Below, piece by piece: positions 1,751-53,153 of a DNA stretch of 64,000 nucleotides. The first letter of the stretch is position 1, and each line of letters starts with the position of its first letter. The notes below the pieces were generated by a model. That model was not told the origin of the DNA, did no database searches, and saw only the letters and a program-made list of their open reading frames with translations. The position numbers were made by a program, and so were the translations under genes. The stretch comes from a virus. Lineage: Duplodnaviria; Caudoviricetes. The DNA is taken from IMG/VR virus record IMGVR_UViG_3300043395_004688, one strand, 5' to 3'.

Positions 1751-2404
1751 ATGTACAAAAGAATAACTCATTCCATTGTAGAAGAACATTTTGGTCATCC
1801 AATGGCCAGTGAAATCAAAGAAAGTTTAGATAACAAAAGTGTTACACTAAGATATTTCATTGAACCCATGACCATTGATAAATTTAGATCGGATATTTTT
1901 AACTACTACAACTCATTGACCAGCAAGCTCAATAGTGCTGTTAAGGCTATCGAAAGCGGCAATGAAACTCAGTTAATGGAAACTGAAAAAACTGTATTTG
2001 AAAACATTGATCAAGTGGGTAATTTATTCAAGGGACTTTATGGACTTGAGTTTGGTGAAAGATTCAACCAATTCAATCGCTCGTTTGTGCTTGGCGCATT
2101 GTCTATTGCCAAGAATTTAAAAAACAAGGTAGACATTAGAGACTGGCGCAATCGCTTGGATGTATTCAAGTTTGATTTGGCCAATATGCTTTTTACCAAT
2201 AATAATCTATGGCGACAACCCGACACACAAAACTTGTTGGGACAAATCATTGATGCATTGGTTCAGCACGAGCAGGCGGTCATTAATAAAGACAGCGCAA
2301 ACGAAACTCAAACCAAAGAAAAACTTGTTAATCTTTGGTCATCGTTGGCCAGCACTTTGGCTTTTGGTGCTGCTCAACAACACCCTGCTAAGTTTACCAA
2401 CTGA
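1751..2404 (+). CDS. Hypothetical helical protein
   Basis: Likely start is the ATG at 1751 after AAGGAAAA; N-terminus MYKRITHSIVEEHF repeats a motif inside the previous gene. Confidence 0.7.
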   Translation: MYKRITHSIVEEHFGHPMASEIKESLDNKSVTLRYFIEPMTIDKFRSDIFNYYNSLTSKLNSAVKAIESGNETQLMETEKTVFENIDQVGNLFKGLYGLEFGERFNQFNRSFVLGALSIAKNLKNKVDIRDWRNRLDVFKFDLANMLFTNNNLWRQPDTQNLLGQIIDALVQHEQAVINKDSANETQTKEKLVNLWSSLASTLAFGAAQQHPAKFTN

Positions 2405-3153
2405 TGTCAAGTCGTTGCAAATATCGTGTAAAGCCAGACCGGTCTGATTGGCGAGATCGTTACTATAACTATGCTCGCAGCACGATTCGCGAAAGTGTTG
2501 ACCTACGCGACATGGCCCGTGTTGTGCAATCTCAAAGTGATTTGGGAAGTTGTACAGCACAGGCCATTGTTGCTGCCTATGAGATACTGTTAAAGCGAGA
2601 ATACCCCAGTGAATTTGCTGAGTTGAGTCCATTGTTTGTATACTACAATACACGCATGGAAGATGGTACAATCAACGAAGACACTGGTGCGTATCTACGC
2701 GATGCTCTCAAGGCCCTGGGTCGTTACGGTGTTTGCACCGAAGAAGTCTGGCCCTATGATCCTAAAAAATTCAATGTAAAGCCATCTGCTGAAGCTTATC
2801 TCAATGCCGGCAAATACAGAATCTCAGAATATCGAAGACTGACCAGCATTGACAATATCTTGGATTCTTTGAGCAACGATCATCCAGTGGTTGCTGGAAT
2901 CATGGTCTATTCCAGCTTTGAACAAATAACCAATGAATCTGTTATATTATCCATGCCCTATGACTCTGAAAAAGAACTAGGTGCTCATGCCTTGCTCTTG
3001 GTTGGCTATGATTTAAATAAGAAACAATTATTGGCTCAAAATAGCTTTGGATCTAGTTGGGGCGAAAAAGGATACTTTTGGATACCCTTTGATTACATGC
3101 AACAAGAGCTAACTGATGCTTGGATTTTCAATATACTTGTAAAAAATGATTGA
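2404..3153 (+). CDS. Papain-like cysteine peptidase (C1A family)
   Basis: Q..LGSCTA (catalytic Cys), HALLLVGY (His), QNSFGSSWGEKGYFW (Asn). Confidence 0.9.
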   Translation: MSSRCKYRVKPDRSDWRDRYYNYARSTIRESVDLRDMARVVQSQSDLGSCTAQAIVAAYEILLKREYPSEFAELSPLFVYYNTRMEDGTINEDTGAYLRDALKALGRYGVCTEEVWPYDPKKFNVKPSAEAYLNAGKYRISEYRRLTSIDNILDSLSNDHPVVAGIMVYSSFEQITNESVILSMPYDSEKELGAHALLLVGYDLNKKQLLAQNSFGSSWGEKGYFWIPFDYMQQELTDAWIFNILVKND

Positions 3154-4129: not shown

Positions 4130-6385
4130 ATGAAACTTTACGAAGTTAAAGGCACAGGCAAATTACAGGGCATGACTGTAATGAGTTTGGATGCTTTTGT
4201 CAATGGCGCAAAGCCTGAAAAAGAAATGGACGAAAGCGATATCAGCGGCTTGTTACATGCTGCTAAAAATTACAACAAGTCCTTTTTAATCACTGCGGAC
4301 TGCGACGATGGCAAGCAAAGAACCTATCGTGTAAGAGCACAAAGCGAGCGTGTGGCACGAGAAAAATTTACAGTACATCATGCAATGGCCAAAATCGTCA
4401 GCGTCAAAGAAGAAGGTGTAGAGGAAGCTGCGCCAGCTTTGGCCAAAACAGCAGCAGGTTTGGCATTGGGCGGCATTGCTGCCGCAGGTGCTCCTGGTAT
4501 TGTAGCTATACTGGGTCCGCTAGTGGGAATTCCAGTGGCTGCATATGGTGCTTATAGTGCTGCCAAGTTAGGCATGAAGGGCGTAGAAAAACTATGGGAC
4601 ATGGCCTCTGAAAAGCTGGGCGGTGACGACAAAGTAGAACAGTATGCCACTGCTCAAATTGCTAAACTTCCACCCGAACAACAACAACCTGTTGCTGACA
4701 CCGTTAAGAAATTAGGCGAAAGCAGAACAGCCAAGCTACATCATGGTGTGGTAGAAGGCAAAGAATTTGGTGCTTACTATTATGAACAGCTGGCACAAAA
4801 AGTATTTGATCAGAATCCCAATTTGTCCAGCGAAAATGAAATTTTAGATCTAGGATACAGTATCACTAAAAATGAATTAGGAGCCAGAGCACAAGGCGTA
4901 TTTCGAGACGAAGATTTTGCTGGTGACTTTGTAAGTGCATACAACTGGTTAAAGCAACAGGAGGATGTAACAGAAGGCAGCAAAGACGGAGACAGAATTA
5001 CCATTGCAGCTCAGGGCAAAGGATACATCGTCTATCATAGCTTTGACCGAGATGCCTATACTGCTCGTGGTGTAGGTGAATGGAAAGGTCAAATTGAACC
5101 AGAATGGTTCTACACTCTGGCTGACGCTGAAGAACATGCTGAAATGGAAATTGCAGGACATGACGAGCACTATGGCAAGATTGATGAGCTGACATTCAAA
5201 GGCAGCACCTGCACCAAGGATTGTTCGGGACATGAAGCCGGTTACAACTGGTATCAGCGCAAAGGCCGCGTCCCAAATTCGCATAGCAAGAGTTTCAACA
5301 AAGGAGCTGACATTGCTGCCAACGAATCTGTAAACGAAGCGCCTGGTGATTTTGGTCTTGGTGCAAACTATCGTGACATTCCTGACGAAGAGATGCAGGC
5401 ATTCTTAGATCGTACCAAGAACAAAGAAAAAACCAAGCGTGACAAGTATGACTATCCTTATGTACATGCTTCTAGTATTCAAATCAAAAACGAAGAAGGT
5501 CGTGAATATGATCTAGACAGTCTTAGAAAAGAAATCATGACAAGACCAGCCAGCATTCTAGGACAAAATGCCAAGATGCAACACAGTGAAACTGGAACCG
5601 AAGCAATCTTTGATATTGGTTTGCCGGCTCTTAAAGGTCTTGCTGTAAACGAAAAGACTGGACAGTTTGTTGTGGTAGACACTTGCCCAGGTGCTGGTGC
5701 TTGTAAGACTTACTGCTATGCTATGAAGGGCAGCTATGTAATGTTCAAAGCAGTAAGCATGGGTCTAGCTCGTATGCTTAACTTCTTGCTCAACGACCCT
5801 GAAGGATTTAAAAACAAGCTAAATGCAGAAATTGCTGCCGCAAGATCTAAAATGGCCAAGAAGGGTGCTCGTGTTGTAGTGCGTTGGCATGATGCTGGAG
5901 ACTTCTTTAGTCCTGAATATCTTGACATGGCCTATGGTGTTGCTCGTGACAATCCTGATGTGGGCTTTTATGCTTATACCAAGATTGCAGATGTAGCCAC
6001 TGGCGATCGTCCCAAGAACTTCAACATGAACTTTAGCCAAGGCGCACTTAGTGGACAAGAAAAGAAAGTTGACTTCAAACGAGTCAAGCACAGCAAGGTA
6101 GTGCCCAAGGACATGTTCTTTGATCTAGTGGCGCGAAAAGGATTAAATCTAATCAAGGATGCCAAGGGCCGTATGCAATTTGCCAGCCCAGAGAATCTTG
6201 AGGACTTTAAAACACGCATGGCCAAACACTATGCCATTGACAAAGACAGTATTCTTACATATGATCAGATGATGGACACTCCGGTTGGTGATGCACCAAA
6301 GTGGAATGTGATTGTCATGCCTGGAGACGGTGATAATTCAGCTAACCGCAATGATGTGATTGGCAGTTACCTGTTGTTTCACTGA
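4130..6385 (+). CDS. Modular protein with C-terminal GP88-like (radical-SAM-related) domain; putative head-packaged polyprotein
   Basis: Start MKLYEV at 4130; TCPGAGACKTYCYAMKGSY, VRWHDAGDFFS and FYAYTK motifs; several [ILVM]-x-E linkers. Confidence 0.7.
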   Translation: MKLYEVKGTGKLQGMTVMSLDAFVNGAKPEKEMDESDISGLLHAAKNYNKSFLITADCDDGKQRTYRVRAQSERVAREKFTVHHAMAKIVSVKEEGVEEAAPALAKTAAGLALGGIAAAGAPGIVAILGPLVGIPVAAYGAYSAAKLGMKGVEKLWDMASEKLGGDDKVEQYATAQIAKLPPEQQQPVADTVKKLGESRTAKLHHGVVEGKEFGAYYYEQLAQKVFDQNPNLSSENEILDLGYSITKNELGARAQGVFRDEDFAGDFVSAYNWLKQQEDVTEGSKDGDRITIAAQGKGYIVYHSFDRDAYTARGVGEWKGQIEPEWFYTLADAEEHAEMEIAGHDEHYGKIDELTFKGSTCTKDCSGHEAGYNWYQRKGRVPNSHSKSFNKGADIAANESVNEAPGDFGLGANYRDIPDEEMQAFLDRTKNKEKTKRDKYDYPYVHASSIQIKNEEGREYDLDSLRKEIMTRPASILGQNAKMQHSETGTEAIFDIGLPALKGLAVNEKTGQFVVVDTCPGAGACKTYCYAMKGSYVMFKAVSMGLARMLNFLLNDPEGFKNKLNAEIAAARSKMAKKGARVVVRWHDAGDFFSPEYLDMAYGVARDNPDVGFYAYTKIADVATGDRPKNFNMNFSQGALSGQEKKVDFKRVKHSKVVPKDMFFDLVARKGLNLIKDAKGRMQFASPENLEDFKTRMAKHYAIDKDSILTYDQMMDTPVGDAPKWNVIVMPGDGDNSANRNDVIGSYLLFH

Positions 6386-7227
6386 TGAGATTGCGTGATA
6401 TACTCAGCGAAGTACCCATGGCTGATTATCAGCCATTGGGTGACTTTGACAAGCCAGGTCCTTTTAGAGGTCCGGATAAAAAGCTAGTTCCGCATCCACG
6501 CAATCGTATCAAGGCCGAACGATTCTTTGAACAAACACCTTATGATTTTCGCTTGTTCTTTAGCAACATATCAGGCACAGGTCGTTACAGCGAGTACGGG
6601 CCTATGGATCCTGAGACTGTAAAAATCATATTTGGTGACGATGGGGAAGAAATTGTTCGAGGACACGAAGATGCCATCACCATTGTGTTTGTTGGCAACA
6701 AAGGCGATGCCAAGCGTATGCTTACACCCTGGTTAATGGCACACAGATTTGGTCACGCTATCACTGCTGGCAGCAGAGGAAAACGCGATGCAGGTGGTGC
6801 TTGGCAAGAAGCTGAACGACATTTCTTTAGCAACGTCAATCAGATACTAGGGGACTTTTATGGCCGGACTGGCAACCCAGGCGGGCAATTAAAGTTTGAA
6901 CTTAGCAAAGAGTATAATGCTCTATTCAATGCCATTGGTACTCAGCGTAGCAGTCGCGAAGGCGACATACGCAGACCATATGAATTCCTCTATGAGATTT
7001 TTGCACAGTACCTAGGAACAGGACAGATTACTCTCAACCCGTTGCCTGTCAGCATTGGCTATGGTCAACAAGCCTGGGGGAAGCCTACTAGAGTTATGTC
7101 TGTACGATCAGCAGAACTGCGTGATGAAAATCAAAGACGCCACACAACAGAATTGCTAGCAAGAGACATGGAAATCATGTTCAATGATGTGCTCAGTGAT
7201 GCCGTTGGTAAAATTTATATAATGTGA
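6385..7227 (+). CDS. Hypothetical protein with degenerate zincin-like motif; putative head protein
   Basis: MRLRDILSE leader; AHRFGHA plus downstream YEIFAQY. Confidence 0.6.
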   Translation: MRLRDILSEVPMADYQPLGDFDKPGPFRGPDKKLVPHPRNRIKAERFFEQTPYDFRLFFSNISGTGRYSEYGPMDPETVKIIFGDDGEEIVRGHEDAITIVFVGNKGDAKRMLTPWLMAHRFGHAITAGSRGKRDAGGAWQEAERHFFSNVNQILGDFYGRTGNPGGQLKFELSKEYNALFNAIGTQRSSREGDIRRPYEFLYEIFAQYLGTGQITLNPLPVSIGYGQQAWGKPTRVMSVRSAELRDENQRRHTTELLARDMEIMFNDVLSDAVGKIYIM

Positions 7228-7233
7228 GGCAAC

Positions 7234-10200
7234 ATGACAAGAACTCCAGGTGAATATGTTTATCATGCAGGTTACTTGCCGCGTGGTTTAGAAAGCGTAA
7301 AAAGCAAAGGACTAATTCCCAGCCAAGACGGTTATTCGGGTCCCGGCGTTTACTTTGCCTACGAACCCGACGAGGGTTTTTATCATGTTGATGCCGCTGA
7401 CGCAACCATGTTTCGTGTGCGCTGGAGTGATCTAGTAAACAGATTTGGAGTTTATCCACAAAAACCCGACGGCATTCAAAGAGACGACAATGAAATTATT
7501 GTACCTGGTGCAGTACCAGCCAGCATGTTGGAAGTTGAATACTTCCCAGGCGAATGGTGGGACATTGCTAGTGCAGTTGCCGCCGATCGCGGACCACCAA
7601 TGAACGAAGCCTTGTTGGTCACGGATGTGCCCAGAGAAGAATGGCTTGAAGATAAGATTGCTTATGCTAAAAAGCGCGGGCGCGATAGCTTTGGTGTACC
7701 TTACATGGGCAGCACCACTGGTTATGTGCGTCAACCTTCTCATGTGGTGCTGCCAGTAAGTACTCTGGCTCGTATTCCGGGTGCTCGCGGCGAACAAAGA
7801 AACATAAGGCAAGACGATCTTAAAGCCATCATGCAGATAATGAAGGACACTGGTAAGCTGCCATTGACCAGCAGCGGCAAAGAGTATGTTCCTTTTATAT
7901 GTGTTGCATGGAATGGCGAACCCTGGGTCATGGAAGGCAATCATAGAATCATGGCTGCTGAACGCTTGGGCTGGGAAACATTACCTGTTGAACTAAAATA
8001 TTTTGATGGTGGCGAGCGAGTTAAATCCGGACTGTTGTATCCAGGTAAAATTGGATTGACTGCTCCTGCTCCGGGTACCTCAGTTACCATGAATGAAGAA
8101 ACCATAAAGCTAGGCAAAACTGATACAAGCAGAGCCCGAGAGTTTATTGATGCAGTATACACACGCTATCCTCATACTTTTCAAAACAATCATGTCATGA
8201 GTTGGGGTTCGGGTGAAGAACAAGAAATTTCCATGTTTGAACTTGTCCCTAGCTTTGGTAAACCCAATGCTGTGGAAATTAAGTGGATACAGGCATATCC
8301 ACTGAGAAAAGGTGTAGGCAGTCGTGCAATGAAAGAACTACAAGGCATGGCGCAAGAACACGGTGTGTCGTTGACGTTGTTCCCTTGGGACAAAGGTCGT
8401 GTTAGTCAAGCCAAGCTAATGAAGTTTTATCGCAGTCATGGTTTTCAGCCCACAGTAAAAGGTGCTAAAAATATGATATGGCACCCTGAAGTAGCAGAAG
8501 CCAGTCTTGCAACCATGCGTGACTATTTTGCAGGAAATGACAAAGCTCAAGATCCTACCAAGCTGTCCGTAATGCGTAAGTATTTTGATCAGGTTGACGG
8601 TGTATCAAATATAAATCGCTCTCCGGGAAAGACAGGAAAAATTCCTGCAGGCATTCCACCCGAAATTCAAGCCTTGGTCAACAAGATGTACCATTCTGGA
8701 AAGATTTCTCCTCAAGAATATGAAATTCTAAGAAGGTTCCAGCAACAAACAAAAATTAATGTAATGGGCATTAAAGAAGCCGAAACAGGTACTGCTTATG
8801 CTCGAGATATTTCAAAAGAATTCCGCAAGCTGGGATATTCAAAAATAGGCAGCGGTGCTGACAGTACAATCTGGGCCAAAGACGCCAGCCATGTAATCAA
8901 GATTCTCATGCCCGAAGATGCAGGCAGTCGTGCTGTAGAAGTCTTTAAAAAGTTCTACGAATTCTGTCAAGCCAGACCAGACATACCTTGTTTGCCAGTG
9001 TTTAATGAATACAACACCATTGATGTCCTAGACAAAGAATATATTCAAATTGACATGGAGCGTTTGTATCCTGTCAAGAAAAACACCTTTGAAGAAGCCA
9101 TGATTTGGTATCTTAGTGACTATGTGGCCAACGGTGCCGTCTGGGAACAAGTAAAACAAGAACTGTCTGATCCACATCCATGGATTAATTCGCACTGGCC
9201 ATCAAAGGCCAACAAGCTGGCTCAAACAGTTCAGGAATTATCAAGTCAAGATGAATCAGCTTGGAATCTTTTGTATTCGGTTATGGCCATGCTGTACAAA
9301 ACTGGTCGTATCAACAAACTTGGTTGGGATTTGCACACAGAAAATGTCATGCGCCGCAGTAACGGTCAACTGGTAATCATTGACCCTTGGTTTGCTGATG
9401 CTTCGCTTATTAGCGAAAGCGTTGATGTTGTAGACGAAAACTTTGCTGACGGTCGTAAACCTGGGCGCAAAGGACTTGCCAAGCGCATGGGTGTAGATTG
9501 CAGTAAAAGTGTAACAGCATTGCGTAAATTGGCCGCTGCTAGTTCAGGGGAAAAACAACGCATGGCGCATTGGTGTGCCAATATGAAAGCTGGTAAAAAT
9601 GAAAGCGTCAATGAAGGTTTAGAAAATGTCAATCAAATGAACTATCTAGTTGACTTACCAGTGATTGGCAACAAACTTGCAAAAGTTGTTAATACTGCTG
9701 ACAATAGAATTACTGTGGTTGTCAATATCAATGGTGTTAACATGCCGTTTTATATCAGTACAGGTGAGGGCGGTAAGGCATCAGTTCCAGCTGGTAAATG
9801 GTATCCTTTTTTTGGCACTGGACCCAGTGGTTGGCTAAACAAAGGCAGTGAAAAAACCATTAATGCATTTTATGGCAGCGGTATTTTAAAGTCTTTTGCA
9901 AACCTGCTTAATTTAAAATTAGGTGACCTAAGAAGCAACGAAAAAGACATTCCTTATATTGTGAAGTCTGCAAGAGATATTATCAATAAAGACATGCTTG
10001 ACCCCCAAAATCATTTTGGTGCCGAAGACCTTGGAGAAATAAAGAAATTTAAAAATCGCATCAATTCTATATTAAAAAGACTTGGTGATGACCCGTTCTA
10101 TGCTGTAGATGAATCACTAGATTTAGCCGAAGGCGGATGGGCAAGTACCGCCACACAGAATACCAAGATTACACCCGCAATCATTGATGAAGCTGTGGGC

Positions 10201-11109
10201 ATACTAAAAGAATTTGAAACCGAATTTAATCAGTGGCAAGCACAAAAAGGCCTTGATGTTGAAATCAAAATGGGTCGTCCTGTGGGGTCTGGAACTTATT
10301 ACAAACGCGACCTTGCACAGGATCCTGAACGAGAATACGGAGATGTAGATGTCATGTGCTACATTCACGGCCGAGAAGGAACAGGTGCTGCCCGCCGTAC
10401 TGCTGAATATGCCGCAGCCGTAGAAGAATTTACACAAGGCCATTCAAAATACAGCACCAGCAACGGTACCAATGTTATCATGGATACTTCGGCTGGGCCT
10501 GTACAAGTTGACCTAATCTACACCTATCATGAACATGCTAACTGGGCACGAATGCTGGCACCTGAATATCGTGTCAAGGGTGTTATCAATACCAGCTTGG
10601 TCAGCAGTCTGGCCGAAGTACTAAATCTCAGCATCGGCGTACAAGGTGTACAAGTAAAGACTCGTGCAGGTCGTCCAGTTAGTTTCCGTCAAAGCAAAGA
10701 CACGGAACTTGCCACTGTAAGCTTAGATCCAGAAAATTGGGGTGCAGATATCTATGCTTACTACTATGAACTAGCAAATGGAACTAAACCCAAAATTCCA
10801 GCCAACTTATCCAAGCATGGCGGACTCAAAGACGAACAGCGCATCAGCGACATTGTATTAACTATCAAGGCCCTGGCCACAGACATGGAACAAGCCAAAT
10901 TACTTGGCGCAGGTGCGCTAGATCATATAGCCAATAAACAAGACATGATGCAACAAATAGCTCGTGTGCTGGACGCAAAGTTTGAAAAAGTAATCAATTC
11001 CAGCAAATTTGACAAGGCTGCAACACCTGCTGCCGTTGAAAAGGCCAATAAAACCAAGCTTATGCTTGCCAAATACCGCAATGAAATAACAAAATTGCTG
11101 TTAAATTAG
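7234..11109 (+). CDS. Polyvalent multi-enzyme protein (ART-like, ParB-like, GNAT, kinase-like, pol-beta nucleotidyltransferase)
   Basis: YVYHAG...GLIP...GVYFA; VMEGNHRIMAA; RKGVGSRAM...LMKFYRSHGF; IGSGADS..VIKI..DLHTENVM..IIDP; PVGSG...YGDVDV. Confidence 0.75.
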   Translation: MTRTPGEYVYHAGYLPRGLESVKSKGLIPSQDGYSGPGVYFAYEPDEGFYHVDAADATMFRVRWSDLVNRFGVYPQKPDGIQRDDNEIIVPGAVPASMLEVEYFPGEWWDIASAVAADRGPPMNEALLVTDVPREEWLEDKIAYAKKRGRDSFGVPYMGSTTGYVRQPSHVVLPVSTLARIPGARGEQRNIRQDDLKAIMQIMKDTGKLPLTSSGKEYVPFICVAWNGEPWVMEGNHRIMAAERLGWETLPVELKYFDGGERVKSGLLYPGKIGLTAPAPGTSVTMNEETIKLGKTDTSRAREFIDAVYTRYPHTFQNNHVMSWGSGEEQEISMFELVPSFGKPNAVEIKWIQAYPLRKGVGSRAMKELQGMAQEHGVSLTLFPWDKGRVSQAKLMKFYRSHGFQPTVKGAKNMIWHPEVAEASLATMRDYFAGNDKAQDPTKLSVMRKYFDQVDGVSNINRSPGKTGKIPAGIPPEIQALVNKMYHSGKISPQEYEILRRFQQQTKINVMGIKEAETGTAYARDISKEFRKLGYSKIGSGADSTIWAKDASHVIKILMPEDAGSRAVEVFKKFYEFCQARPDIPCLPVFNEYNTIDVLDKEYIQIDMERLYPVKKNTFEEAMIWYLSDYVANGAVWEQVKQELSDPHPWINSHWPSKANKLAQTVQELSSQDESAWNLLYSVMAMLYKTGRINKLGWDLHTENVMRRSNGQLVIIDPWFADASLISESVDVVDENFADGRKPGRKGLAKRMGVDCSKSVTALRKLAAASSGEKQRMAHWCANMKAGKNESVNEGLENVNQMNYLVDLPVIGNKLAKVVNTADNRITVVVNINGVNMPFYISTGEGGKASVPAGKWYPFFGTGPSGWLNKGSEKTINAFYGSGILKSFANLLNLKLGDLRSNEKDIPYIVKSARDIINKDMLDPQNHFGAEDLGEIKKFKNRINSILKRLGDDPFYAVDESLDLAEGGWASTATQNTKITPAIIDEAVGILKEFETEFNQWQAQKGLDVEIKMGRPVGSGTYYKRDLAQDPEREYGDVDVMCYIHGREGTGAARRTAEYAAAVEEFTQGHSKYSTSNGTNVIMDTSAGPVQVDLIYTYHEHANWARMLAPEYRVKGVINTSLVSSLAEVLNLSIGVQGVQVKTRAGRPVSFRQSKDTELATVSLDPENWGADIYAYYYELANGTKPKIPANLSKHGGLKDEQRISDIVLTIKALATDMEQAKLLGAGALDHIANKQDMMQQIARVLDAKFEKVINSSKFDKAATPAAVEKANKTKLMLAKYRNEITKLLLN

Positions 11110-11131
11110 GCGTCCGCTAAAAACTAATAAC

Positions 11132-11139
11132 ACTAAATA
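11132..11139 (+). promoter_or_regulatory. T4-late-like promoter motif
   Basis: ACTAAATA in the intergenic gap. Confidence 0.45.
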
Positions 11140-11190
11140 TATCACTACTTGACGAATAGATTCGTCTGGAAAATATTAAAGGAAACTAAA

Positions 11191-11469
11191 ATGGAATTTC
11201 TAGTAGTATTAGCGGTAGGTGCCGTAGTTGTTTGGTGGTTTTTGGTTAGAAAAGAAAACAAGCCAACTGACGAATCAGCTGCCCCATACAAGGTAGAAAC
11301 ACCTGAATCAGCTGAAAAGACAGAAACAGTAGCTCACAGCGTTGCTGGTCTAGTAGTACTAGATACTGTACCTGCTGCTGCTCCTGCACCTGCTGAAGAG
11401 GCTGCTCCAAAGAAAAAGCCAGCTGCTAAAAAGGCTGCGGCTCCCCGTAAGAAGAAGGCAGCACAGTAA
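11191..11469 (+). CDS. Small membrane protein with Lys/Ala/Pro-rich tail
   Basis: N-terminal TM segment FLVVLAVGAVVVWWFLV; tail APKKKPAAKKAAAPRKKKAAQ; SD AAGGAAA. Confidence 0.7.
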   Translation: MEFLVVLAVGAVVVWWFLVRKENKPTDESAAPYKVETPESAEKTETVAHSVAGLVVLDTVPAAAPAPAEEAAPKKKPAAKKAAAPRKKKAAQ

Positions 11470-11471
11470 TA

Positions 11472-12188
11472 ATGTTATTGCGTGAAATTACATCAACTCT
11501 GCGAGTTATTAAAGAAGGTGGTAATGTCTTTAAAAACAAAGACGGTGAGATTCTCACGCAACGCATTAATCAAGCAGATGTAGAGCCCACAGTTCGTTGG
11601 TTGGAAAAAATTACCAGCTACGAACATGTACCGCACATGCTAGGCACCACTGGTAAAAAAGCCACCAGTGGTGACCTAGACATTGGTATGCCACCAGGCA
11701 TTAGCAAGGATGAACTGATTGCTAAACTCACTGCCTGGTGCGGTAAAAATAACATGGATGCCAAAGATTGTATCAAGAAAAGCGGCGTCAGTGTGCATTT
11801 TAAAACTCCCATTGGCGGAGCACCAGACCGTGGTTATGTGCAAACAGATTTTATGTTTTTACCAAACCTAGAGTTTGCAAAGTTTAGCATGGCTGCTGAC
11901 CCCAACAGCAAACACAAAGATGCCAGCAAGCATGTGGTGTTAAGTTCAGTGGCCAAACATGCAGGCTATAAGTGGAGCCCTACCAATGGCCTACTTAATA
12001 GAGAAACAAATGAGTTAATCAGCGATCAACCAGATGAAATTGCTCACATGTTGTTTGGCGAAGAACATGATCGTGCTGCGTTAACCAGTGTTGAATCTGC
12101 GCTATCTGCACTTGAAAATAATCCGGATGTGGATCAAATTCTAGCCGATGCCAGAGAAACATTGAGCAAGCAAGGAATTACTATCTAA
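11472..12188 (+). CDS. Pol-beta-superfamily nucleotidyltransferase
   Basis: LGTTGKKATSGDLDI (G[TS]...DxD) plus VQTDFM third acidic residue; leader MLLREI...IKE|GG. Confidence 0.7.
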   Translation: MLLREITSTLRVIKEGGNVFKNKDGEILTQRINQADVEPTVRWLEKITSYEHVPHMLGTTGKKATSGDLDIGMPPGISKDELIAKLTAWCGKNNMDAKDCIKKSGVSVHFKTPIGGAPDRGYVQTDFMFLPNLEFAKFSMAADPNSKHKDASKHVVLSSVAKHAGYKWSPTNGLLNRETNELISDQPDEIAHMLFGEEHDRAALTSVESALSALENNPDVDQILADARETLSKQGITI

Positions 12189-13642
12189 TGATACTGCGAG
12201 ATATTTTAGTTGTTGAAAAGAACTTAACTCCTGCCGAGCTTGTCAAGCACGGTGGAAAATATCTACGCACTCTCATTGATCTAGTAGATGCTGATAAACC
12301 CTTGCCTATTGATCCTGAGTATCGTGGTCGTTTCACAGAACCATATGCGGTAATTAACAAGGATCAAATTCCATTACTACAGGCTGCGTTAGACAACCCC
12401 GACATCAAGTCAGCATTGCCTAAAAAAGTACGCATGACCATTGGTGACGAAGAGCAGGAACAGCCTCTAAGCCTACTATTCAAAGGCACTGAGTTTACCA
12501 GCTTAGAGCAGAAAAAAGACTACAATGCCGGACACTTAGCGGAACTGTTTATGGGTCTGTGTGTTGCTGCCAAATTTTTTGCTGTGGGTGGAAAAATAAC
12601 CGCAGATCAAATCATGGACATGATTGGGCATGTTAATTCTGAAATTGACGGCAAGAACTATGTTTTTACCGTTAGCTCATCTATTCAGTACCCAGACCGC
12701 GGAGTAAAAACTGACTCATTAAATTTCCTTGCCCGTGTTCCTGCTCGTAGTGCTGAAGCATTTTTAAAGCAGGCTGCTGCTAGAAAATTTGATCCTGATC
12801 TACAGGCTGTACTATCTAGTACTGTAAAATATGTTAACGACTCAGGCAGCGTGAAACAAAGCACTGAACGAGTTCGCAACGATAAAAATAACAATCACAT
12901 TGATGTAGTCAGTGATGGTACTAGTGATGCCAAGGGCACCAAGGCCGATCTAACACTTAAAGTTGATGGTACAAAGGTTAACCTATTAAGCTTAAAAACC
13001 TACAGCAGTGATACACTGGGTCAGGCATCCGGGTTGAGTTTTGAAAACCTAAGCAAGTGGTTTAAAACCAATTTTGATCTCAATATCAATGCACACAAAG
13101 ATCAATTTGATCCGGCGCAAGGCGAAGAAACTGTCTATAACAATTTGTTAAAGTTTTATGACGATGTGGTTTTTCCTTATGTAGAAGAGCACATCGAAAA
13201 CCAAAAGCCTGGTGCAGAAGCTGCCATTGTTAAACAGCTGGCTCGTGCTGCCAATATCTATGCTCGAGGTGACACCTTGGAAGATGTTGAAGTAGTTAAA
13301 CTAGATGACAAAATTAGTTCAGGCAGTTATAAGATTCTCAGATTCAGTGATAACTTGCAAGATGCCATGAAACATCTAGATCTAGATGTAAAATACATTA
13401 ACAAAGGCAACAGTCGCACCATTCAAATATGGACTGTGCCTGCCGAAGGCGAACAAGTTGCCAAAGGCAGCAATAAGCTTTGCCAATTCCGTACTACCAA
13501 GATGGGCGGATATGCTCGCAATTACTTTGAGTCAGGACCTATGCTTGAGGCCTTGACTGCGGTCAACACTCCTGTTGACACAGAAACTACACCAGCTGGT
13601 GTGTCCAAGACTGTTACTTCCAAGACTAGACAATTAAAGTAA
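12188..13642 (+). CDS. Hypothetical protein with possible PD-(D/E)xK nuclease fold
   Basis: GHLAELF ... TKADLTLK...NLLSLKT; leader MILRDILVVE. Confidence 0.45.
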   Translation: MILRDILVVEKNLTPAELVKHGGKYLRTLIDLVDADKPLPIDPEYRGRFTEPYAVINKDQIPLLQAALDNPDIKSALPKKVRMTIGDEEQEQPLSLLFKGTEFTSLEQKKDYNAGHLAELFMGLCVAAKFFAVGGKITADQIMDMIGHVNSEIDGKNYVFTVSSSIQYPDRGVKTDSLNFLARVPARSAEAFLKQAAARKFDPDLQAVLSSTVKYVNDSGSVKQSTERVRNDKNNNHIDVVSDGTSDAKGTKADLTLKVDGTKVNLLSLKTYSSDTLGQASGLSFENLSKWFKTNFDLNINAHKDQFDPAQGEETVYNNLLKFYDDVVFPYVEEHIENQKPGAEAAIVKQLARAANIYARGDTLEDVEVVKLDDKISSGSYKILRFSDNLQDAMKHLDLDVKYINKGNSRTIQIWTVPAEGEQVAKGSNKLCQFRTTKMGGYARNYFESGPMLEALTAVNTPVDTETTPAGVSKTVTSKTRQLK

Positions 13643-13743: not shown

Positions 13744-14232
13744 ATGAAAATTAAAAATTGTCTTGTTGTTACTGCGGCAATGTGCGCTATCAGTTCCGTT
13801 GCTGCTGCCGAACTTCAACATAACTTCAACAGTCCTTCATTCTCGGGCATTGGCTGGAGCAGCCATGTGCTGACACTAAAACAATTAGAAGATCAGCAAA
13901 AAGATAAAAACAAGGCCGCAGCAGATGCAATTAAACTGGCTGCGGAAAGAGCAGCCGCTAATACTCCGCAGGCTAGATTCCAAGCCAGTATGGAAACAAG
14001 AATCTACAGTGAATTAGCCAAGCGCATCACTGACAGCTTGTTTGGTTCATCAACTGGTTCACCAATGTGTACTCCTCTAAGTGCAGGCGGACCATGTGGC
14101 GACATTGATCTTGGTGGACAAAATATTACTTGGCGTATCGACGGTAACAACATTGTTGTGCGAATTTCAGAAATTGCCAATCCAAACAATTACACAGAGT
14201 TGGTAATGCCTTATGCGGCATTTAAGATTTAA
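13744..14232 (+). CDS. csgF: Curli assembly protein CsgF-like
   Basis: Signal peptide, then ELQHNFNSPSFSG (CsgF N-terminal F.NPSFGG-type motif); directly upstream of csgG. Confidence 0.75.
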   Translation: MKIKNCLVVTAAMCAISSVAAAELQHNFNSPSFSGIGWSSHVLTLKQLEDQQKDKNKAAADAIKLAAERAAANTPQARFQASMETRIYSELAKRITDSLFGSSTGSPMCTPLSAGGPCGDIDLGGQNITWRIDGNNIVVRISEIANPNNYTELVMPYAAFKI

Positions 14233-14247
14233 GGATTTTAAAATACT

Positions 14248-15165
14248 ATGAATACAAAATTAATTTCAGCCGCAGCACTAACAGTATTGCTTTCAGGATG
14301 CGCCACAGGTGAATTTATACGCGAGCGCATCAGTGGTGATCAATACGAAGAACCGGTCGTTGACCAAGGTGCTTATCTAAGGCGCCAGTCTGAAAAATTA
14401 AAGGCGCCTGCGGGTGGCCCAATTCCTGTTGCAGTCTACGGATTTATGGATAAAACTGGACAGCGTAAAAGCTTGCCCAATGTGGCCAGTTTGAGTAGCG
14501 CAGTAACACAAGGTGCAGAAAGCTATTTGATCAAGGCTCTACAAGATGCTGGTGAAGCTCGTTGGTTTACAGTATTGGAACGAGTTGGCCTAGACAATCT
14601 TATCAAAGAGCGTCAGATGATTCGTCAAGCCAGAGAACTTTATCAAGGTAAAGATGCTAGACCACTGCCACCAATGGTGTTTGCAGGTATCATCATAGAA
14701 GGCGGCATCATTGGCTATGACACAAACCAACTAACAGGTGGTTCAGGCGTAAGAATTTTTGGCATTGGAGCACAAACACAATATCAAAGCGATACTGTTA
14801 CAGTTAATTTGCGTACAGTAAGTGTGGCCACTGGTGAAGTATTGACCAGCGTTACCATTACCAAAACAGTATTAAGCTATTTGGACAAAGCAGGTGTGTT
14901 AAAATTCGTTGACAGTGGCACAATGGCAGTGGAAGCAGAAACCGGTGTTGGCATCAACGAAAGCATTAACAAGGCAATAAACATGGCAGTTCAGGCAGCA
15001 GTTGTGCAAACTATTCACGAAGGCGCCCGCAAAGGACATTGGTCTTTTAAAGAACAAAGTTCAGCTCTGCCAGCACCGGAGGTAAAGAAAGATGAGTTGG
15101 TTCCGCCACAAGCCAATACGCCACCCCAGGTACCAGCAGCTGGTACAGGAACAAAGGTGGAATGA
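14248..15165 (+). CDS. csgG: Curli secretion channel CsgG
   Basis: Lipobox LLSGC; VAVYGFMDKTGQRK, WFTVLERVGLDNLIKERQMIR, IIEGGIIGYD, TVNLRTVSVATGEVL. Confidence 0.92.
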   Translation: MNTKLISAAALTVLLSGCATGEFIRERISGDQYEEPVVDQGAYLRRQSEKLKAPAGGPIPVAVYGFMDKTGQRKSLPNVASLSSAVTQGAESYLIKALQDAGEARWFTVLERVGLDNLIKERQMIRQARELYQGKDARPLPPMVFAGIIIEGGIIGYDTNQLTGGSGVRIFGIGAQTQYQSDTVTVNLRTVSVATGEVLTSVTITKTVLSYLDKAGVLKFVDSGTMAVEAETGVGINESINKAINMAVQAAVVQTIHEGARKGHWSFKEQSSALPAPEVKKDELVPPQANTPPQVPAAGTGTKVE

Positions 15166-15330
15166 AAAAGATTCTAAGAATCTAGTAAAGGAAGAAGAAA
15201 AATACTTAGATAGTAATTTAAAAAAGTCCAAGAGTAGTAGGACTTATAAATCCGGATAAGAAATCCGGTACAGCGGGCAAGGCGCCCAGGAGAGTAGGCA
15301 AGAGAACATAATAATCTGCCTATTGGAAAA

Positions 15331-16134
15331 ATGGTATCTTATAAGAAATTAACACTTGCAATGATGCTAGGGCTAGGCACACTTGTACCACAGGTTGCTT
15401 TTGCTCAAGCAGCAACTGGACCAAACAAGGTTTATATTGAGCAAGTTGGTAACTCTAATACCGTAACACTACAACAAGTGGGAGGTAGTAACAACATTGG
15501 TGGTGTTGCAACTACTGCGGCAAAGTCTGTTGCGGCAACCGGTGTCACAACATTCTTTCCAACCGCACCAAGCAGTTCGAACTATGCTACAATCACTGGC
15601 AGCTCAAATACCGTTGCAGTGACACAGACTGGTAATAGCAACAGTACTCGTTACGACATCCAAGGAAACGATAACGCATACTCAAGCACAGTTACTGGTC
15701 ACAGTAACCTTACCAACTTGGTAATTGGTGACGCTAACAATGCTGCAAATTTACGCAATACTGTTACTGAAACAATCACTGGTGATTCAAATTTAATTCT
15801 ACAACAAATTGTTGGCAGTGATATTACCAGCACCATAAGCATCACAGGTGACAGTAACCAAATCACCAAAGAGCTTAAGAGCTCAAATGGTAGCAGTACT
15901 ATTAGTATCAGCGGCGGCAGCAATATTTTTAATGTGCAACAAACTGACGCTGCTGGAGCCAATGGACATGTACTAATAGCATCTGTCACTGGCAACACCA
16001 ACAGCATTACTACACAGCAACAAGGCACCAACGACACCACAGTAAATATTCAAACAACTGGTAGCAACAACACTATTACTGTAAGAACCAGCAGTAGTGC
16101 TATTGTTAATCCAGTAACTGCTATTTCGAGATAA
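15331..16134 (+). CDS. Curlin-like secreted repeat protein
   Basis: Signal peptide ending AFA-Q; repeated [IV].Q.G..N units (IEQVGNSN, LQQVGGSN, VTQTGNSN, TQQQGTND). Confidence 0.8.
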   Translation: MVSYKKLTLAMMLGLGTLVPQVAFAQAATGPNKVYIEQVGNSNTVTLQQVGGSNNIGGVATTAAKSVAATGVTTFFPTAPSSSNYATITGSSNTVAVTQTGNSNSTRYDIQGNDNAYSSTVTGHSNLTNLVIGDANNAANLRNTVTETITGDSNLILQQIVGSDITSTISITGDSNQITKELKSSNGSSTISISGGSNIFNVQQTDAAGANGHVLIASVTGNTNSITTQQQGTNDTTVNIQTTGSNNTITVRTSSSAIVNPVTAISR

Positions 16135-16136
16135 AA

Positions 16137-17237
16137 ATGTGGAAGTCACCATTGATATTGGTGCTATCACTTCAGCTGAGTACCGCCTTTGCTCAATCCA
16201 TTGGGGTTGTTAGCGAAAACAAAGGTACTCAGTGTGAAGTGCAACGTGGCCGAGCAGTTTCATCTGGTGTCAAAGGAACCAGTATTGAAAGCATGGATAC
16301 CTACAGAACGCAGGCCTGTGCTAGTTCTATAACATTTAAAGATGACACCAAGGTAAAGATAACTGAAAATTCCAAATTGGTAATTGATGATTTTGTGTTT
16401 GATCCTCGCAGATCTGACGCTGGTAAGTTGGCCATGAAGGTCAGCATGGGTACTGTGCGCTATGCCAGTGGTCAAATAGCCAAGAACAATCCACAACAGG
16501 TTGCAGTCAATACTCCTACAGCAAACATTGCTGTGCGTGGCACAGACTTTTCAATGACCGTAGATGAAACAGGACAAAGTCTTGTGGTATTGCTTCCAAG
16601 TTGCAAAGATGAAAGCGAGCAAAAGAAATACGAGCTAGAAGAAAATCGTTGCAGAGTAGGACGAATTGAGGTTACCAATGCGGCTGGTACTGTAGTACTT
16701 GACAAAGCATTTGAATCCACTTATATTATTGCATTTGATACTAAACCAACACCCCCGGTAATCATTAATACCGTTGAGTCAAAAATTAACAATTTGCTGA
16801 TTATTTCTAGACCACCCGAGGTTGCACAGGCAGTAAAGCAGCATACCCGCACTCGTCGTGAAGAACTAGAAGCAGAAATAGAAGCCGAAGCGCAGAGAAG
16901 AATAAGTCAGCGCATTCAAGAAACCAACGAAGACATAGAAAGAGCTAGACTATTAATGCTACAACAGGCAGCAAGTAATACCGGATGTAACGCCAGTACT
17001 CATGTTTGTGTTGTATGGAATAATCCTGAAGCAGCAGATATTCAAAGTCGCGGACGCGGCATTGCTTTTCGCTCCAATGAAGATCACTATGCTGAAGTCA
17101 AAACACAAGGCTACAGCAGTAATACCACAGTTACTATTGTACACAACGATCAAAGTGCCACTGAAGTAATTGGCACAGGTGGTGCTGGTGGTAATACTGT
17201 TTTTATTAAACAAAACGGCGGAGTACTACGACGATGA
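16137..17237 (+). CDS. FecR-domain protein
   Basis: Signal peptide; ITFKDDTKVKITENSKLVID and VNTPTANIAVRGTDF motifs. Confidence 0.85.
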   Translation: MWKSPLILVLSLQLSTAFAQSIGVVSENKGTQCEVQRGRAVSSGVKGTSIESMDTYRTQACASSITFKDDTKVKITENSKLVIDDFVFDPRRSDAGKLAMKVSMGTVRYASGQIAKNNPQQVAVNTPTANIAVRGTDFSMTVDETGQSLVVLLPSCKDESEQKKYELEENRCRVGRIEVTNAAGTVVLDKAFESTYIIAFDTKPTPPVIINTVESKINNLLIISRPPEVAQAVKQHTRTRREELEAEIEAEAQRRISQRIQETNEDIERARLLMLQQAASNTGCNASTHVCVVWNNPEAADIQSRGRGIAFRSNEDHYAEVKTQGYSSNTTVTIVHNDQSATEVIGTGGAGGNTVFIKQNGGVLRR

Positions 17238-17410
17238 CAAATATGAACTTATTTCAACTAATGTACCAACAATGGATCCAAGAAAACGAGTATTATGTGT
17301 CCAGGTGGAAAGATTTCATTGAGCTAGCTGTAAGAGAAACTAACTTACCAGGTTCTGAGATTCTCAATGAACTTGAACAAACAACATGGTTTAAAAGAAC
17401 ATATGATTAA
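17234..17410 (+). CDS. Small hypothetical protein (58 aa, not in ORF track)
   Basis: ATGA overlap with the FecR stop; MTNMNLFQLMYQQWIQ...KRTYD*; its stop overlaps the next start. Confidence 0.55.
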   Translation: MTNMNLFQLMYQQWIQENEYYVSRWKDFIELAVRETNLPGSEILNELEQTTWFKRTYD

Positions 17411-19115
17411 AAGTCTATTACATTCAGCTAGGCCAAAATTTTGGGCGTGGCTAATTGTTGCGCTGTTTTTGTCTGCGATGTCTAAATGTGCGTTGGCACA
17501 AACAACTTTCGTAGACTTGCAATTTGGCCGTTATCAAATTGCCGACAGCCAATGGAATGTCAGTGCCTGTACTGGAACAACAACCTGTCAAATTTATGCT
17601 ACAAATCCAGGTACCATGTATAAAATTCCCTGGACCACTGGACAATGGTCTTGGCAAACAGGACAATATGTAAAGTTTGAAGCCAGTGGTAATGCCAATT
17701 TTCCATGGACTGCAAAAGTTTATAACAGCAACGGTACAGTAGCAGGCGTCATTGGTACTGGTAAGGTTATCAACATGGGAACAGATGCCAATGGTAAGTC
17801 ATTTTTCTTTTTCATGGGCAGCGATAACGACACTGGCCAACTGTTCAGTACCAACACTGGCCTAACAGGTACAGGCGGTTACACCTGGACTGGTACCCGA
17901 AATCCAACTACCACACAGCTAAACACATTTGCGTCAACGGGTTCTACTACTCCATTGGCGTCTGGACAAACCTACACCAGCGCACCAACACCTACCCCTA
18001 CACCAATTTATAACAATAATGTCACAGCTGGCGCAGCAATCTACATTACCAACCACTATCCTACCAGTAACAACAGCCCAGCAGGCGAAGGTGCGGCAAA
18101 TGCATTTGACAACAATCCCAACACCAAGTACTTGAACTTTGACAAGTATAATGCTGGTGTTACTGTAAAACTAAACTCTGGCCGTGCTGTTACTGCATTT
18201 AAATTGACCACAGCCAATGATTTTCCAGGCCGAGATCCTACCAGTTATAAACTTTATGGCAGCAATGACGGTGTAAACTGGACGCTGATCCAGCAAGGTA
18301 GTTTAAGTCTTAGCAACACTAGATTTTGGACCAGCCCTGAAATTCCAGTGACCAATGCCACTGCTTATGCTTATTATTATATTTTCTTTCCAACAACCAA
18401 AGCCGGCGACGGATGCGGTCTAGATTGTAACAGTATGCAGATTGCAGAAATCACCTACATATATGATTCCAGTAGTACAACAACATCAACTGCATCCGGA
18501 TCAACTGTGTCCAATCCTGGAAGTCTTTGCTGTGGCGGAAGCTCTGCGCCATTTAGTGCTGACGCCACTAACACAGCCAAGGTCAATGCCTTTTTGGGTC
18601 GCACTACCAATGACAGCAAGGTGCGAATTGAGCAGATAGGCAACTATAATACCATTACCGTTCAGCAAACTGGTACTCGACAAAATTATACCGAGTATTA
18701 TGGAAATGGGTCTGGCAATACAGTTAACGTTACCCAATCTGGCACAGCCAACACACAAGTCAATTACACAGATCTTAGAGTACTGGGCAGTAATAATACT
18801 GTAAACATAACTCAACAAAGCACTGGTGGTGGCAAAGGAGTGTTTGCCACAGTCAATGATAACAATAACTCTTTGACTATTCAGCAACGAGATTCTGGCA
18901 GTCACTATGCCGAAGTAACACTCAGCGGTGGAAACAAAAGTGTGGACATTACTCAGCAAGGTAGTGCCAGTCATATGGCCAAAATCAACCTAAGTGGATT
19001 GCCACAAGAACTCATTCTCACTCAAAGTGGCAGTACTCAACAGTTTTACTCCATTACCAGTAACTGTGCCACAGCAGGTGGATGTGCTAGGATCACAGTG
19101 AACCAAGGACAGTGA
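17403..19115 (+). CDS. Secreted protein with discoidin/F5-8C-like domain and C-terminal curlin repeats
   Basis: Signal peptide; EGAANAFDNNPNTKY...YKLYGSNDGVNWT...MQIAEI; C-terminal Q.G..N repeats. Confidence 0.75.
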   Translation: MIKSLLHSARPKFWAWLIVALFLSAMSKCALAQTTFVDLQFGRYQIADSQWNVSACTGTTTCQIYATNPGTMYKIPWTTGQWSWQTGQYVKFEASGNANFPWTAKVYNSNGTVAGVIGTGKVINMGTDANGKSFFFFMGSDNDTGQLFSTNTGLTGTGGYTWTGTRNPTTTQLNTFASTGSTTPLASGQTYTSAPTPTPTPIYNNNVTAGAAIYITNHYPTSNNSPAGEGAANAFDNNPNTKYLNFDKYNAGVTVKLNSGRAVTAFKLTTANDFPGRDPTSYKLYGSNDGVNWTLIQQGSLSLSNTRFWTSPEIPVTNATAYAYYYIFFPTTKAGDGCGLDCNSMQIAEITYIYDSSSTTTSTASGSTVSNPGSLCCGGSSAPFSADATNTAKVNAFLGRTTNDSKVRIEQIGNYNTITVQQTGTRQNYTEYYGNGSGNTVNVTQSGTANTQVNYTDLRVLGSNNTVNITQQSTGGGKGVFATVNDNNNSLTIQQRDSGSHYAEVTLSGGNKSVDITQQGSASHMAKINLSGLPQELILTQSGSTQQFYSITSNCATAGGCARITVNQGQ

Positions 19116-19123
19116 TCCAGGAT

Positions 19124-19152
19124 TTGACTTCGCTAAGTACTTCCGTTACAAT
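19124..19152 (+). promoter_or_regulatory. sigma70-type promoter
   Basis: TTGACT-17 nt-TACAAT upstream of the cyclase; SD GAGG. Confidence 0.65.
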
Positions 19153-19174
19153 GTTCTAGCGAGGTAAAATTCAC

Positions 19175-35235: not shown

Positions 35236-36174
35236 ATCTTTGACCAGGCCTTGAATAATATCATTTGCTGGTAGAATTTCTTTTATTTGGTCTATTGACT
35301 TGCCAGCAAACACATGGCCTCGGCTTGGATCTTTGATTCCTACTATGAGTCCGCGTGTATTGTTCATATTTCTTTCTTTGACATCTGAGCTGAAAACCAG
35401 TGCATTTTGTTTGGTTTCCGTATAAGTGCCAGTGGAAAGTTTAGAAAGGTCTGCGGATGTTGCGCCAATCATTTTTAACTTGGTAGCTTCAGAAATTTTA
35501 CTTTCTTTACTAGCAGCCAGCAATGTTCCTATGCCAATGGCAAATGCTCCTTGAGACATGTATTCTTTCACTTGTTGACTGGTTCCAATACCGCCGGACG
35601 GAATCAATAGTTTGTCTGGAAACTTAGTTCTAAGTATGTTGCATGATTCTTCTAGAGTTAACCCTTCTACAGAACCCCGACCAGCACCATCTGGCCCTTT
35701 AACAATAAATCCATCTAAGTTTTTAGACCATACACCAGGTTCTAAGTGTGCGACCTTGTCTACAATTTTACGAAATATCAATGAGCCGTTGTCTTTAATA
35801 GACCAAATAATTTTAGGAAGCCTTTCAACTACATCATCAGGTAAAACTGTGTCATCCTTGATAATTTCAATGAGCTTGACACGATACTTTAATATCATTT
35901 CTAAAATTAAAGGATCAGTCAAAGACGACAGATTAAGACTCAGCAAGAGCTCACAGTCATTGAATTCGTTGTGATACCCTGCAAGATCCTTTTCTAAATT
36001 TTCATGTATTAAAACTATCTGATCACCAACAACATTCAAATAATTAAAAACAGACAAGCTGGGCAATGCACCAGCTCTACGCACAGCACTGGCCAGTGGC
36101 AAATCAGATACTTGATTCATTGCCATGGCAACGATAGGATAACGGCAGTTAAAAACTTCAGTAAATAGCTTCAT
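35230..36174 (-). CDS. Nitronate monooxygenase/FabK-like flavin TIM-barrel protein
   Basis: YPIVAMAM, GPDGAG, IPSGGIG, GAFAIGIGTLLAASKES. Confidence 0.75.
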   Translation of the reverse strand: MKLFTEVFNCRYPIVAMAMNQVSDLPLASAVRRAGALPSLSVFNYLNVVGDQIVLIHENLEKDLAGYHNEFNDCELLLSLNLSSLTDPLILEMILKYRVKLIEIIKDDTVLPDDVVERLPKIIWSIKDNGSLIFRKIVDKVAHLEPGVWSKNLDGFIVKGPDGAGRGSVEGLTLEESCNILRTKFPDKLLIPSGGIGTSQQVKEYMSQGAFAIGIGTLLAASKESKISEATKLKMIGATSADLSKLSTGTYTETKQNALVFSSDVKERNMNNTRGLIVGIKDPSRGHVFAGKSIDQIKEILPANDIIQGLVKDL

Positions 36175-36179
36175 ACTAA

Positions 36180-36187: not shown

Positions 36188-36210
36188 GTAATAATTTGGA
36201 GAAATTTACC

Positions 36211-53152: not shown

Positions 53153-53153
53153 A

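Follow-up and report, generated by a model that had tools for sequence, protein, structure and literature searches.

A chain of eight modules in a T4-related giant phage as a candidate head-packaged polyprotein

Polyvalent proteins of phages carry many unrelated effector domains per polypeptide, including ADP-ribosyltransferase (ART), ParB, GNAT, Kinase-PolyVal and nucleotidyltransferase domains, which are extremely shuffled and predicted to be delivered with the DNA (PMC5512222). For their release, Iyer, Burroughs, Anand, de Souza and Aravind proposed in 2017 the action of fused peptidase domains (PMC5512222). In phage T4, cargo is directed to the prohead core by leaders, which gp21 removes by cutting after Glu (PMC3012670, PMC5694885, PMC9026906). 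Here, we analyze a 1291-residue protein encoded at 7234-11109 (+ strand; 1291 codons, the longest open reading frame of its region) in a 64,000-nucleotide stretch of viral DNA (Duplodnaviria; Caudoviricetes; IMG/VR record IMGVR_UViG_3300043395_004688), hereafter the window. With a probability of roughly 0.6, we consider this protein to be a head-packaged polyprotein that a prohead protease would cut into separate injected enzymes. The proposed mechanism is closest to the leader-targeted internal proteins and Alt of T4, and the architecture fits the concept of polyvalent proteins.

Like polyvalent proteins, the 1291-residue protein is a single phage polypeptide that combines catalytic or effector domains of unrelated types, with five enzyme folds assigned, and the Pfam markers ART-PolyVal, Polbeta, DUF5661, Zeta toxin, NUDIX and amidoligase are found in its relatives. 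Unlike those described (PMC5512222), it has neither their anchors nor their fused processing peptidases. Instead of the release proposed in 2017, a standard three-residue linker here matches the specificity of a prohead protease, and a T4-type leader would target the relatives. The leader pattern of these relatives is near-identical to that of T4 IPI-III and Alt (MRAxEFIxE compared to MKTYQEFIAE), with the cut after Glu and a hydrophobic residue at P3, the third position before the cut; the T4 cargo likewise includes an ART, and its composition is highly variable (PMC3012670). However, T4 packages single-domain proteins with their own leaders, whereas up to eight cargoes would here be chained, with internal sites and no leader. 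In the giant phages phiKZ, 201phi2-1 and SPN3US, numerous internal head proteins are likewise processed behind a Glu within a short motif, commonly at several sites of one protein (PMC5694885, PMC9026906), but the motif is S/A/G-x-E, the long propeptides are discarded, the cuts do not separate enzymes and the lineage is a different one. Later surveys from the group of Iyer et al. mention MuF and portal fusions and not the present arrangement, and in the open literature on polyvalent proteins combined with a prohead protease we found nothing beyond PMC5512222 and an unrelated preprint.

Module borders, junction linkers and leaders

A preliminary description of the stretch had proposed the 1291-residue reading frame, eight modules and eight cut points, and we found all of them on the residues it had named (M1 to M8, Table 1). 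By comparing 257 relatives with BLAST and mapping them on the 1291-residue protein, we delimited homology blocks at residues 1-128, 123-288, 288-424, 513-730, 733-788, 801-956 and 964-1291, which in the relatives stand alone or are rearranged and joined to different partners. This comparison of module order, which the preliminary description had itself suggested, placed the block edges where it had cut the chain and revealed free recombination. The module borders are genuine evolutionary units, beyond a visual impression. Partner domains in the relatives further include Zeta-toxin kinase, NUDIX, cytidine deaminase, amidoligase, HD, SET, ART-PolyVal, Polbeta and DUF5661. Among strain-level relatives (85-99% identical), the differences are entire cassettes gained or lost, with the motif at each cassette boundary. 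The block 964-1291 (M8) is C-terminal in all relatives and begins with GGWAS after [VIL]-x-E throughout. No module is as widespread as the block 733-788 (M6), which mostly closes the chain in relatives and is present in 85 of the 257 relatives and in over 557 IMG/VR stretches. We obtained 141 relatives from a word-indexed search, and 3,501 at E<=0.001, 410 of them at E<=1e-30, from an exhaustive HMMER search of 1.84 billion representative proteins. The protein itself is located on a 327-kb contig.

All junctions of the 1291-residue protein fit [VILM]-x-E, that is P3-P2-P1. Over the entire protein the motif is found 21 times for 19.7 expected; since it is not enriched overall, the signal lies in its placement and not in its count. 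We estimated at about 10% the chance that a site falls within +/-3 residues of one independently defined border, and at about 1e-7 the chance for seven borders. Then, we counted the conservation of the junctions solely in relatives whose upstream sequence is non-homologous to that of this protein. Before M8 (GGWAS), P1 is Glu in 41 of 43 relatives and P3 is Val, Ile or Leu in 42 of 43; Glu also occupies P1 before M6 (NFADG; 74/84), M5 (28/35) and M7 (5/6), and P2 and the positions further upstream vary among relatives. In AlphaFold models, the predicted local distance difference test (pLDDT) falls below 50 at residues 120-124 and 278-290 and in the first six residues of the M8 model, so that the modelled junction linkers are predicted to be disordered. 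The preliminary description had listed the linkers at the junctions and attached no mechanism to them. Judged by their sequence, the junction linkers are the most informative feature of the protein, matching T4-type prohead-protease sites and the ends of putative capsid-targeting leaders.

In relatives that begin with one of the modules, a leader of 7-15 residues comes before it and stops exactly where the junction lies here. Such pairs of leader and junction are available for M2, M3, M5, M6, M7 and M8, for instance (relative first, slash at the cut) MRARDFILE/ALLITDVP and PPMNE/ALLVTDVP for M2, ...SVIE/AETNT and GIKE/AETGT for M5, MKIKDVDE/NFADG and VVDE/NFADG for M6, ...GVAE/GLEH and SVNE/GLEN for M7, and MRATEFIIE/GGWAST and LAE/GGWAST for M8. 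Junction and leader are thus cut in the same register, and an identical mature N-terminus would result from either form. Starts of the type MRAxEFIxE (M-R-A-x-E-F-I-x-E or similar) are present in 95-126 of 245 family members (39-51%), compared to 2-3 of the 86 other open reading frames of the window and to less than 1% of internal Met positions. By reading the T4 genome directly, we found that IPII and IPIII start with MKTYQEFIAE/A and Alt with MELITE/LFDE, and that gp23 is matured at FLTE/AEI. The T4 cleavage consensus, L/I-x-E, agrees with these sequences.

Predicted folds of the modules

From the sequence, the preliminary description had named an ART (residues 1-125), a ParB-like module (126-288), a GNAT, a kinase-like module and a C-terminal pol-beta nucleotidyltransferase, and it had seen neither a MuF nor an ArdC-N anchor. 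Each of these assignments was recovered: the first two by structure prediction and exhaustive comparison with the PDB, the GNAT by profile homology, the kinase by PHROG and Kinase-PolyVal matches together with invariant catalytic residues, and the nucleotidyltransferase by its fold and catalytic triad. A Pfam scan of the whole protein at E<=1 likewise found no MuF, portal, ArdC, ArdC-N, relaxase or vRNAP anchor and no fused metallopeptidase; the same direct scan gave GNAT and Kinase-PolyVal, both sub-threshold.

Residues 1-290 were folded with AlphaFold on a checked alignment (model mca3e3e852444, pLDDT 84) and compared by Foldseek and by exhaustive VIA-align against 48,161 PDB chains. The best Foldseek match of M1 was Tpt1/KptA (E 5e-4, probability 1.0), and VIA-align gave KptA and Tpt1 at Z 8.8 and 8.5 (root mean square deviation of 2.7 Å over 89 residues for Z 8.8), aligned to the NAD-binding lobe. 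The next matches of residues 1-120 were TreX, Scabin, DarT, LT, CARDS, PARPs and diphtheria toxin, all from the ADP-ribosyltransferase superfamily, and H11, Y40 and E100/E102 are invariant in the sequence alignment. These models support an ADP-ribosyltransferase fold whose nearest match is the NAD lobe of the RNA 2'-phosphotransferase Tpt1/KptA. However, M1 does not have the N-terminal RNA-binding lobe, which holds most of the catalytic residues of Tpt1, and it has the H-Y-E pattern instead, so the substrate of M1 is not inferable from Tpt1. M1 does not match the Pfam model ART-PolyVal of polyvalent proteins, and an hhalign comparison between M1 and the ART-PolyVal domain found in a relative gave a negative result (probability 0.2%). 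For M2, the modelled residues 165-265 matched ParB/sulfiredoxin-fold proteins exclusively, with sulfiredoxin at Z 7.4 followed by SerK, SbnI, KorB, PadC, Noc and ParB. The motif E-G-N-H-R at 234-238 is conserved, with G235 and R238 invariant (the G-x-x-R nucleotide-binding motif); in addition, a profile search returned SbnI at E 0.056, and Pfam ParB_N was matched by one family member alone (1.3e-3). A ParB/sulfiredoxin fold is therefore supported for M2 at the level of the model.

The profile of M3 matched the PDB entry 6IUF (E 6.9e-7), which is the anti-CRISPR acetyltransferase AcrVA5 (PMC11021501), and serotonin N-acetyltransferase (E 0.004). Its putative acetyl-CoA motif R358-x-G360-x-G362 aligns with 6IUF in the R-x-G-x-G-S loop, and eight modules homologous to M3 matched Pfam GNAT models, M3 itself reaching 14.9 bits for a cut-off of 27 against Acetyltransf_7. 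These matches support M3 as a mini-GNAT homologous to AcrVA5. The latter is its nearest solved relative, and both are GNATs of minimal size with the acetyl-CoA motif RQGxGS, but M3 is only ~25-30% identical to it over 75 residues and has ~50 additional N-terminal residues. M5 matched the protein kinase phrog_15752 (E 3.5e-6), the kinase phrog_18305 (E 6e-6) and aminoglycoside phosphotransferase (E 0.06). Kinase-PolyVal was matched by 9 modules homologous to M5 (best E 1.9e-4) and by M5 itself at 12.4 bits for a cut-off of 27. The Gly loop (G539/G541), the beta3 Lys (K556), the catalytic D699, N704 and the metal-binding D717 are invariant in 22 sequences, which supports M5 as a Kinase-PolyVal-like kinase in which every predicted catalytic residue is present.

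The predicted structure of M8 (model m6f5efd50817f, pLDDT 88) matched CD-NTases and Pol X (Pol beta/lambda) by Foldseek with a probability above 0.9, CCA-adding enzymes and cGAS among the Swiss-Prot models, Pol beta and African swine fever virus Pol X by VIA-align (Z 9.2), and the AlphaFold DB cluster 'Nucleotidyltransferase' (E 4.7e-16, TM 0.77), these matches being exclusively pol-beta-superfamily enzymes. G1018-S1019, D1037, D1039 and D1093 are invariant and correspond to the GS/DxD/D triad. The model thus supports a nucleotidyltransferase of the pol-beta superfamily, with CD-NTase, Pol X and CCA/poly(A) as candidate subfamilies. Because M8 matches none of the Pfam nucleotidyltransferase models, including the Polbeta model of polyvalent proteins, it would be an undescribed branch of this superfamily. 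A weak match of M8 to 'DP622' was dismissed, as this is a de novo designed protein.

For the other three modules, M4 had no match in the Pfam scan at E<=1, and M6 had none in Pfam or in profile searches of the PDB, its Atlas matches being small viral hypothetical proteins only. M7 matched phrog_32390 (E 1.5e-8), a family whose function is not known, and had no match in the Atlas or in profile searches of the PDB.

Prohead protease, lineage and gene neighbourhood

A prohead protease of the gp21 family (Peptidase_S77, 87 bits) is encoded in two of the five large IMG/VR contigs that carry M6, namely the longest two (326 and 280 kb), between the genes for a very acidic core-like protein and a coiled-coil scaffold protein. 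In one of these contigs, the gene after the scaffold gene encodes a homologue of gp23, in which HLAE/AAT aligns with FLTE/AEI of T4. The protease is ~90% conserved across aquatic contigs, which number in the thousands and reach 375 kb, and among isolates it is closest to the T4-related jumbo phages Phosso, SCTP-2, Vibrio 2.275.O, Atu_ph07 and PA5oct. The family-B DNA polymerase of the window also has Phosso and Atu_ph07 as nearest isolates, and rIIB is found on a syntenic sister contig. Since related contigs encode the protease and the nearest isolates of polymerase and protease coincide, we infer that the phage of the window has a gp21-type protease. By these affinities the source is an uncultured T4-related giant (jumbo) phage. 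The gene directly 5' of the protease (2693-3688 of L095, IMG/VR contig G004) encodes 331 residues, with 105 Asp/Glu compared to 34 Lys/Arg; as a speculation, this acidic protein could be a core component that binds the basic M6.

The window is a densely packed, phage-like stretch with genes on one strand and no tRNA genes. The 1291-codon gene belongs to a tightly packed row (4130-13642), in which four of its neighbours bear leaders (Table 1). In the sister genome the order is kept, with a GP88 protein, a variable gene, the polyvalent protein, a small protein, two leader-bearing proteins, CsgF and CsgG. The product of 4130-6385 has a Gly/Ala-rich hydrophobic stretch at about residues 100-150, and its internal linker matches the NESVNE/G of the 1291-residue protein; by its sequence, it is probably a second polyprotein. 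Two genes past the fused M8, the free nucleotidyltransferase of 11472-12188 starts with GG after its predicted cut, as M8 does. A 143-residue open reading frame remote from the row (51440-51871) also has a leader of the family type, MKISDLKE/N.

Table 1. Coordinates of the modules of the 1291-residue protein and of the leader-bearing genes of its row (slash, putative cut)
Feature	Coordinates	Strand	Residues	Assignment or content	Module end or leader
M1	7234-7608	+	1-125	predicted ADP-ribosyltransferase fold; no N-terminal targeting leader	MNE/A (E125)
M2	7609-8097	+	126-288	predicted ParB/sulfiredoxin fold	MNE/E (E288)
M3	8098-8499	+	289-422	putative mini-GNAT acetyltransferase	VAE/A (E422)
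M4	8500-8778	+	423-515	small, rare (8 relatives), no family match	IKE/A (E515)
M5	8779-9417	+	516-728	protein-kinase-like	ISE/S (E728)
Spacer after M5	9418-9438	+	7 residues		VDE/N (E735)
M6	9439-9615	+	736-794	basic 'NFADG...W..NM' module, net charge +8	VNE/G (E794)
M7	9616-10131	+	795-966	invariant YISTGEGGK...WYPFFG...GWLNKG	LAE/G (E966)
M8	10132-11109	+	967-1291 plus stop	predicted pol-beta-superfamily nucleotidyltransferase and C-terminal helical domain	
Upstream gene	4130-6385	+		C-terminal GP88 (PF17338) domain; internal NESVNE/A linker	MKLYE/V
Upstream gene	6385-7227	+	280 residues		MRLRDILSE/V
Downstream gene	11472-12188	+	238 residues	putative small pol-beta nucleotidyltransferase (GTTGKKATSGDLDIG, VQTD)	MLLRE..VIKE/GGNVF
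Downstream gene	12188-13642	+			MILRDILVVE/K

Beyond the row, a curli-like secretion set (13744-21220) includes CsgF (13744-14232), CsgG (14248-15165), curlin-repeat proteins (15331-16134 and 17367-19115), a FecR-domain protein (16137-17237) and a CHASE2-adenylate/guanylate cyclase (19175-21220), and the order CsgF-CsgG-FecR is shared with a sister contig. A papain-family (Peptidase_C1) cysteine protease, unusual in a phage, is encoded 4 kb 5' of the polyprotein gene (2404-3153, E 3e-16). The regions 30162-37586 and 48474-56434 contain many sugar-nucleotide and glycosylation genes, among them two UDP-glucose/GDP-mannose dehydrogenase-like genes, an NAD epimerase/dehydratase, a GT1 glycosyltransferase and a cytidylyltransferase fused to mannose-6-P isomerase. 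The window also encodes a radical SAM protein and an IMPDH/GMP reductase (58029-59048).

Head packaging and its alternatives

Under the proposed mechanism, the gene product would be a chain of cargo enzymes for the phage head, joining the prohead core at a late stage of infection. A prohead protease of the T4 gp21 type would then cut behind the Glu of every [VILM]-x-E linker and release up to eight products, which would be a KptA-like ADP-ribosyltransferase, a ParB/sulfiredoxin-fold enzyme, an AcrVA5-like acetyltransferase, a kinase, a basic 59-residue peptide, two modules of unknown function and a nucleotidyltransferase. The products would accompany the DNA into the cell and target host proteins or nucleic acids ahead of phage gene expression, in host takeover or counter-defence, and the reading of the preliminary description, a multi-pronged host-takeover or anti-defence kit, may describe them. 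From the sequence features described above we infer packaging, cleavage and injection, as well as the activities and targets of the products.

Several observations weigh against this mechanism. The 1291-residue protein starts with MTRTPGEYVYH, with no leader of 6-20 residues ending in [LIVM]-x-E, and in leader-bearing relatives of M1 the mature end falls at the position of this start. Leaders are also rarer in proteins ending with M8 (9/48 compared to 111/169, Fisher p 7e-9), whose entry into the prohead a leader would thus mostly not explain. Stand-alone M8 proteins do have leaders, so M8 is probably a cargo and not a targeting device. Moreover, twelve additional [VILM]-x-E sites fall inside domains, so that the motif alone does not predict cutting and accessibility must determine which sites would be cut. 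In three of the five large contigs carrying M6 no protease was found, all five, including the two that carry it, being incomplete by the CheckV estimate (21-79%). Searches of cultured phages by megablast and tblastn found no relative of the 1291-residue protein apart from a ParB segment of a Dolichospermum phage with 34% identity. Finally, the T4 late promoter TATAAATA was not found near the gene, with only TAAATA upstream of 4130, and it is not enriched (1 match for 2.7 expected).

The principal alternative, which we regard as unlikely, is that the chain functions uncut as an intact polyvalent protein and that the [VILM]-x-E motifs are relics of the in-frame fusion of leader-bearing genes. 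Indeed, N4 vRNAP, ArdC and TraC1 are delivered unprocessed (PMC5512222), several junctions contain Met residues that resemble fossil start codons (MNE/A, MNE/E and MGIKE/A), and a protein that is not cut would fit the absence of a leader from the 1291-residue chain. However, fossil leaders should retain more than three residues or erode. Because P3 and P1 are conserved in hundreds of independent contexts while P2 and the upstream positions vary, the motif appears to be under ongoing selection and not in decay. The missing leader is also what would be expected from an enzyme array that stays in the cytoplasm and is never packaged, either whole or processed by another protease such as the papain-like C1 peptidase, and its proximity as well as the lack of any portal, terminase or capsid gene within 20 kb can be read in the same way. 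We find this improbable, as the junctions fit the specificity of gp21-type proteases, the relatives of each module bear leaders of the capsid-targeting type, four leader-bearing genes stand in the same row and the synteny is kept in the sister genome. The junction motif is not known as a signature of papain-type enzymes.

A very improbable variant of packaging is that the leaderless chain is brought into the prohead by the leader-bearing product of 6385-7227, through occasional read-through or protein-protein binding. This upstream gene is in frame with the polyprotein, from which a single TGA (7225-7227) plus two codons separate it, and the close relative L002 has an identical layout, but L002 is too closely related to be independent evidence. 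Moreover, a GAGG ribosome-binding site lies over the TGA stop, as in ordinary coupled genes, and the upstream gene of the sister genome is a different one, encoding a GNAT of 134 residues and overlapping in another frame. Stop-codon read-through from the upstream gene is therefore unlikely.

Within head packaging, we tentatively put forward, at slightly less than even odds, a more general picture in which this abundant, uncultured T4-related jumbo lineage would run a plug-and-play delivery system. Cassettes bounded by [VILM]-x-E would be chained, swapped and unchained between strains, the head protease would free the effector cocktail, with an AcrVA5-like acetyltransferase and a nucleotidyltransferase family not described before, and leaderless chains would use a second targeting route. 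The leaderless chains themselves point to a second way of entry into the prohead.

The delivery and separation of polyvalent-protein domains have so far been mostly guesswork, and this family gives a testable rule, namely a three-residue linker in the register of the leader cut. If the rule is true, the mature products of thousands of metagenomic phage proteins would be predictable from sequence, which would provide a large catalogue of candidate injected effectors, including relatives of a proven anti-CRISPR enzyme. It would also extend the T4 packaging toolkit, which already loads foreign proteins into heads, to chains of multiple cargoes.

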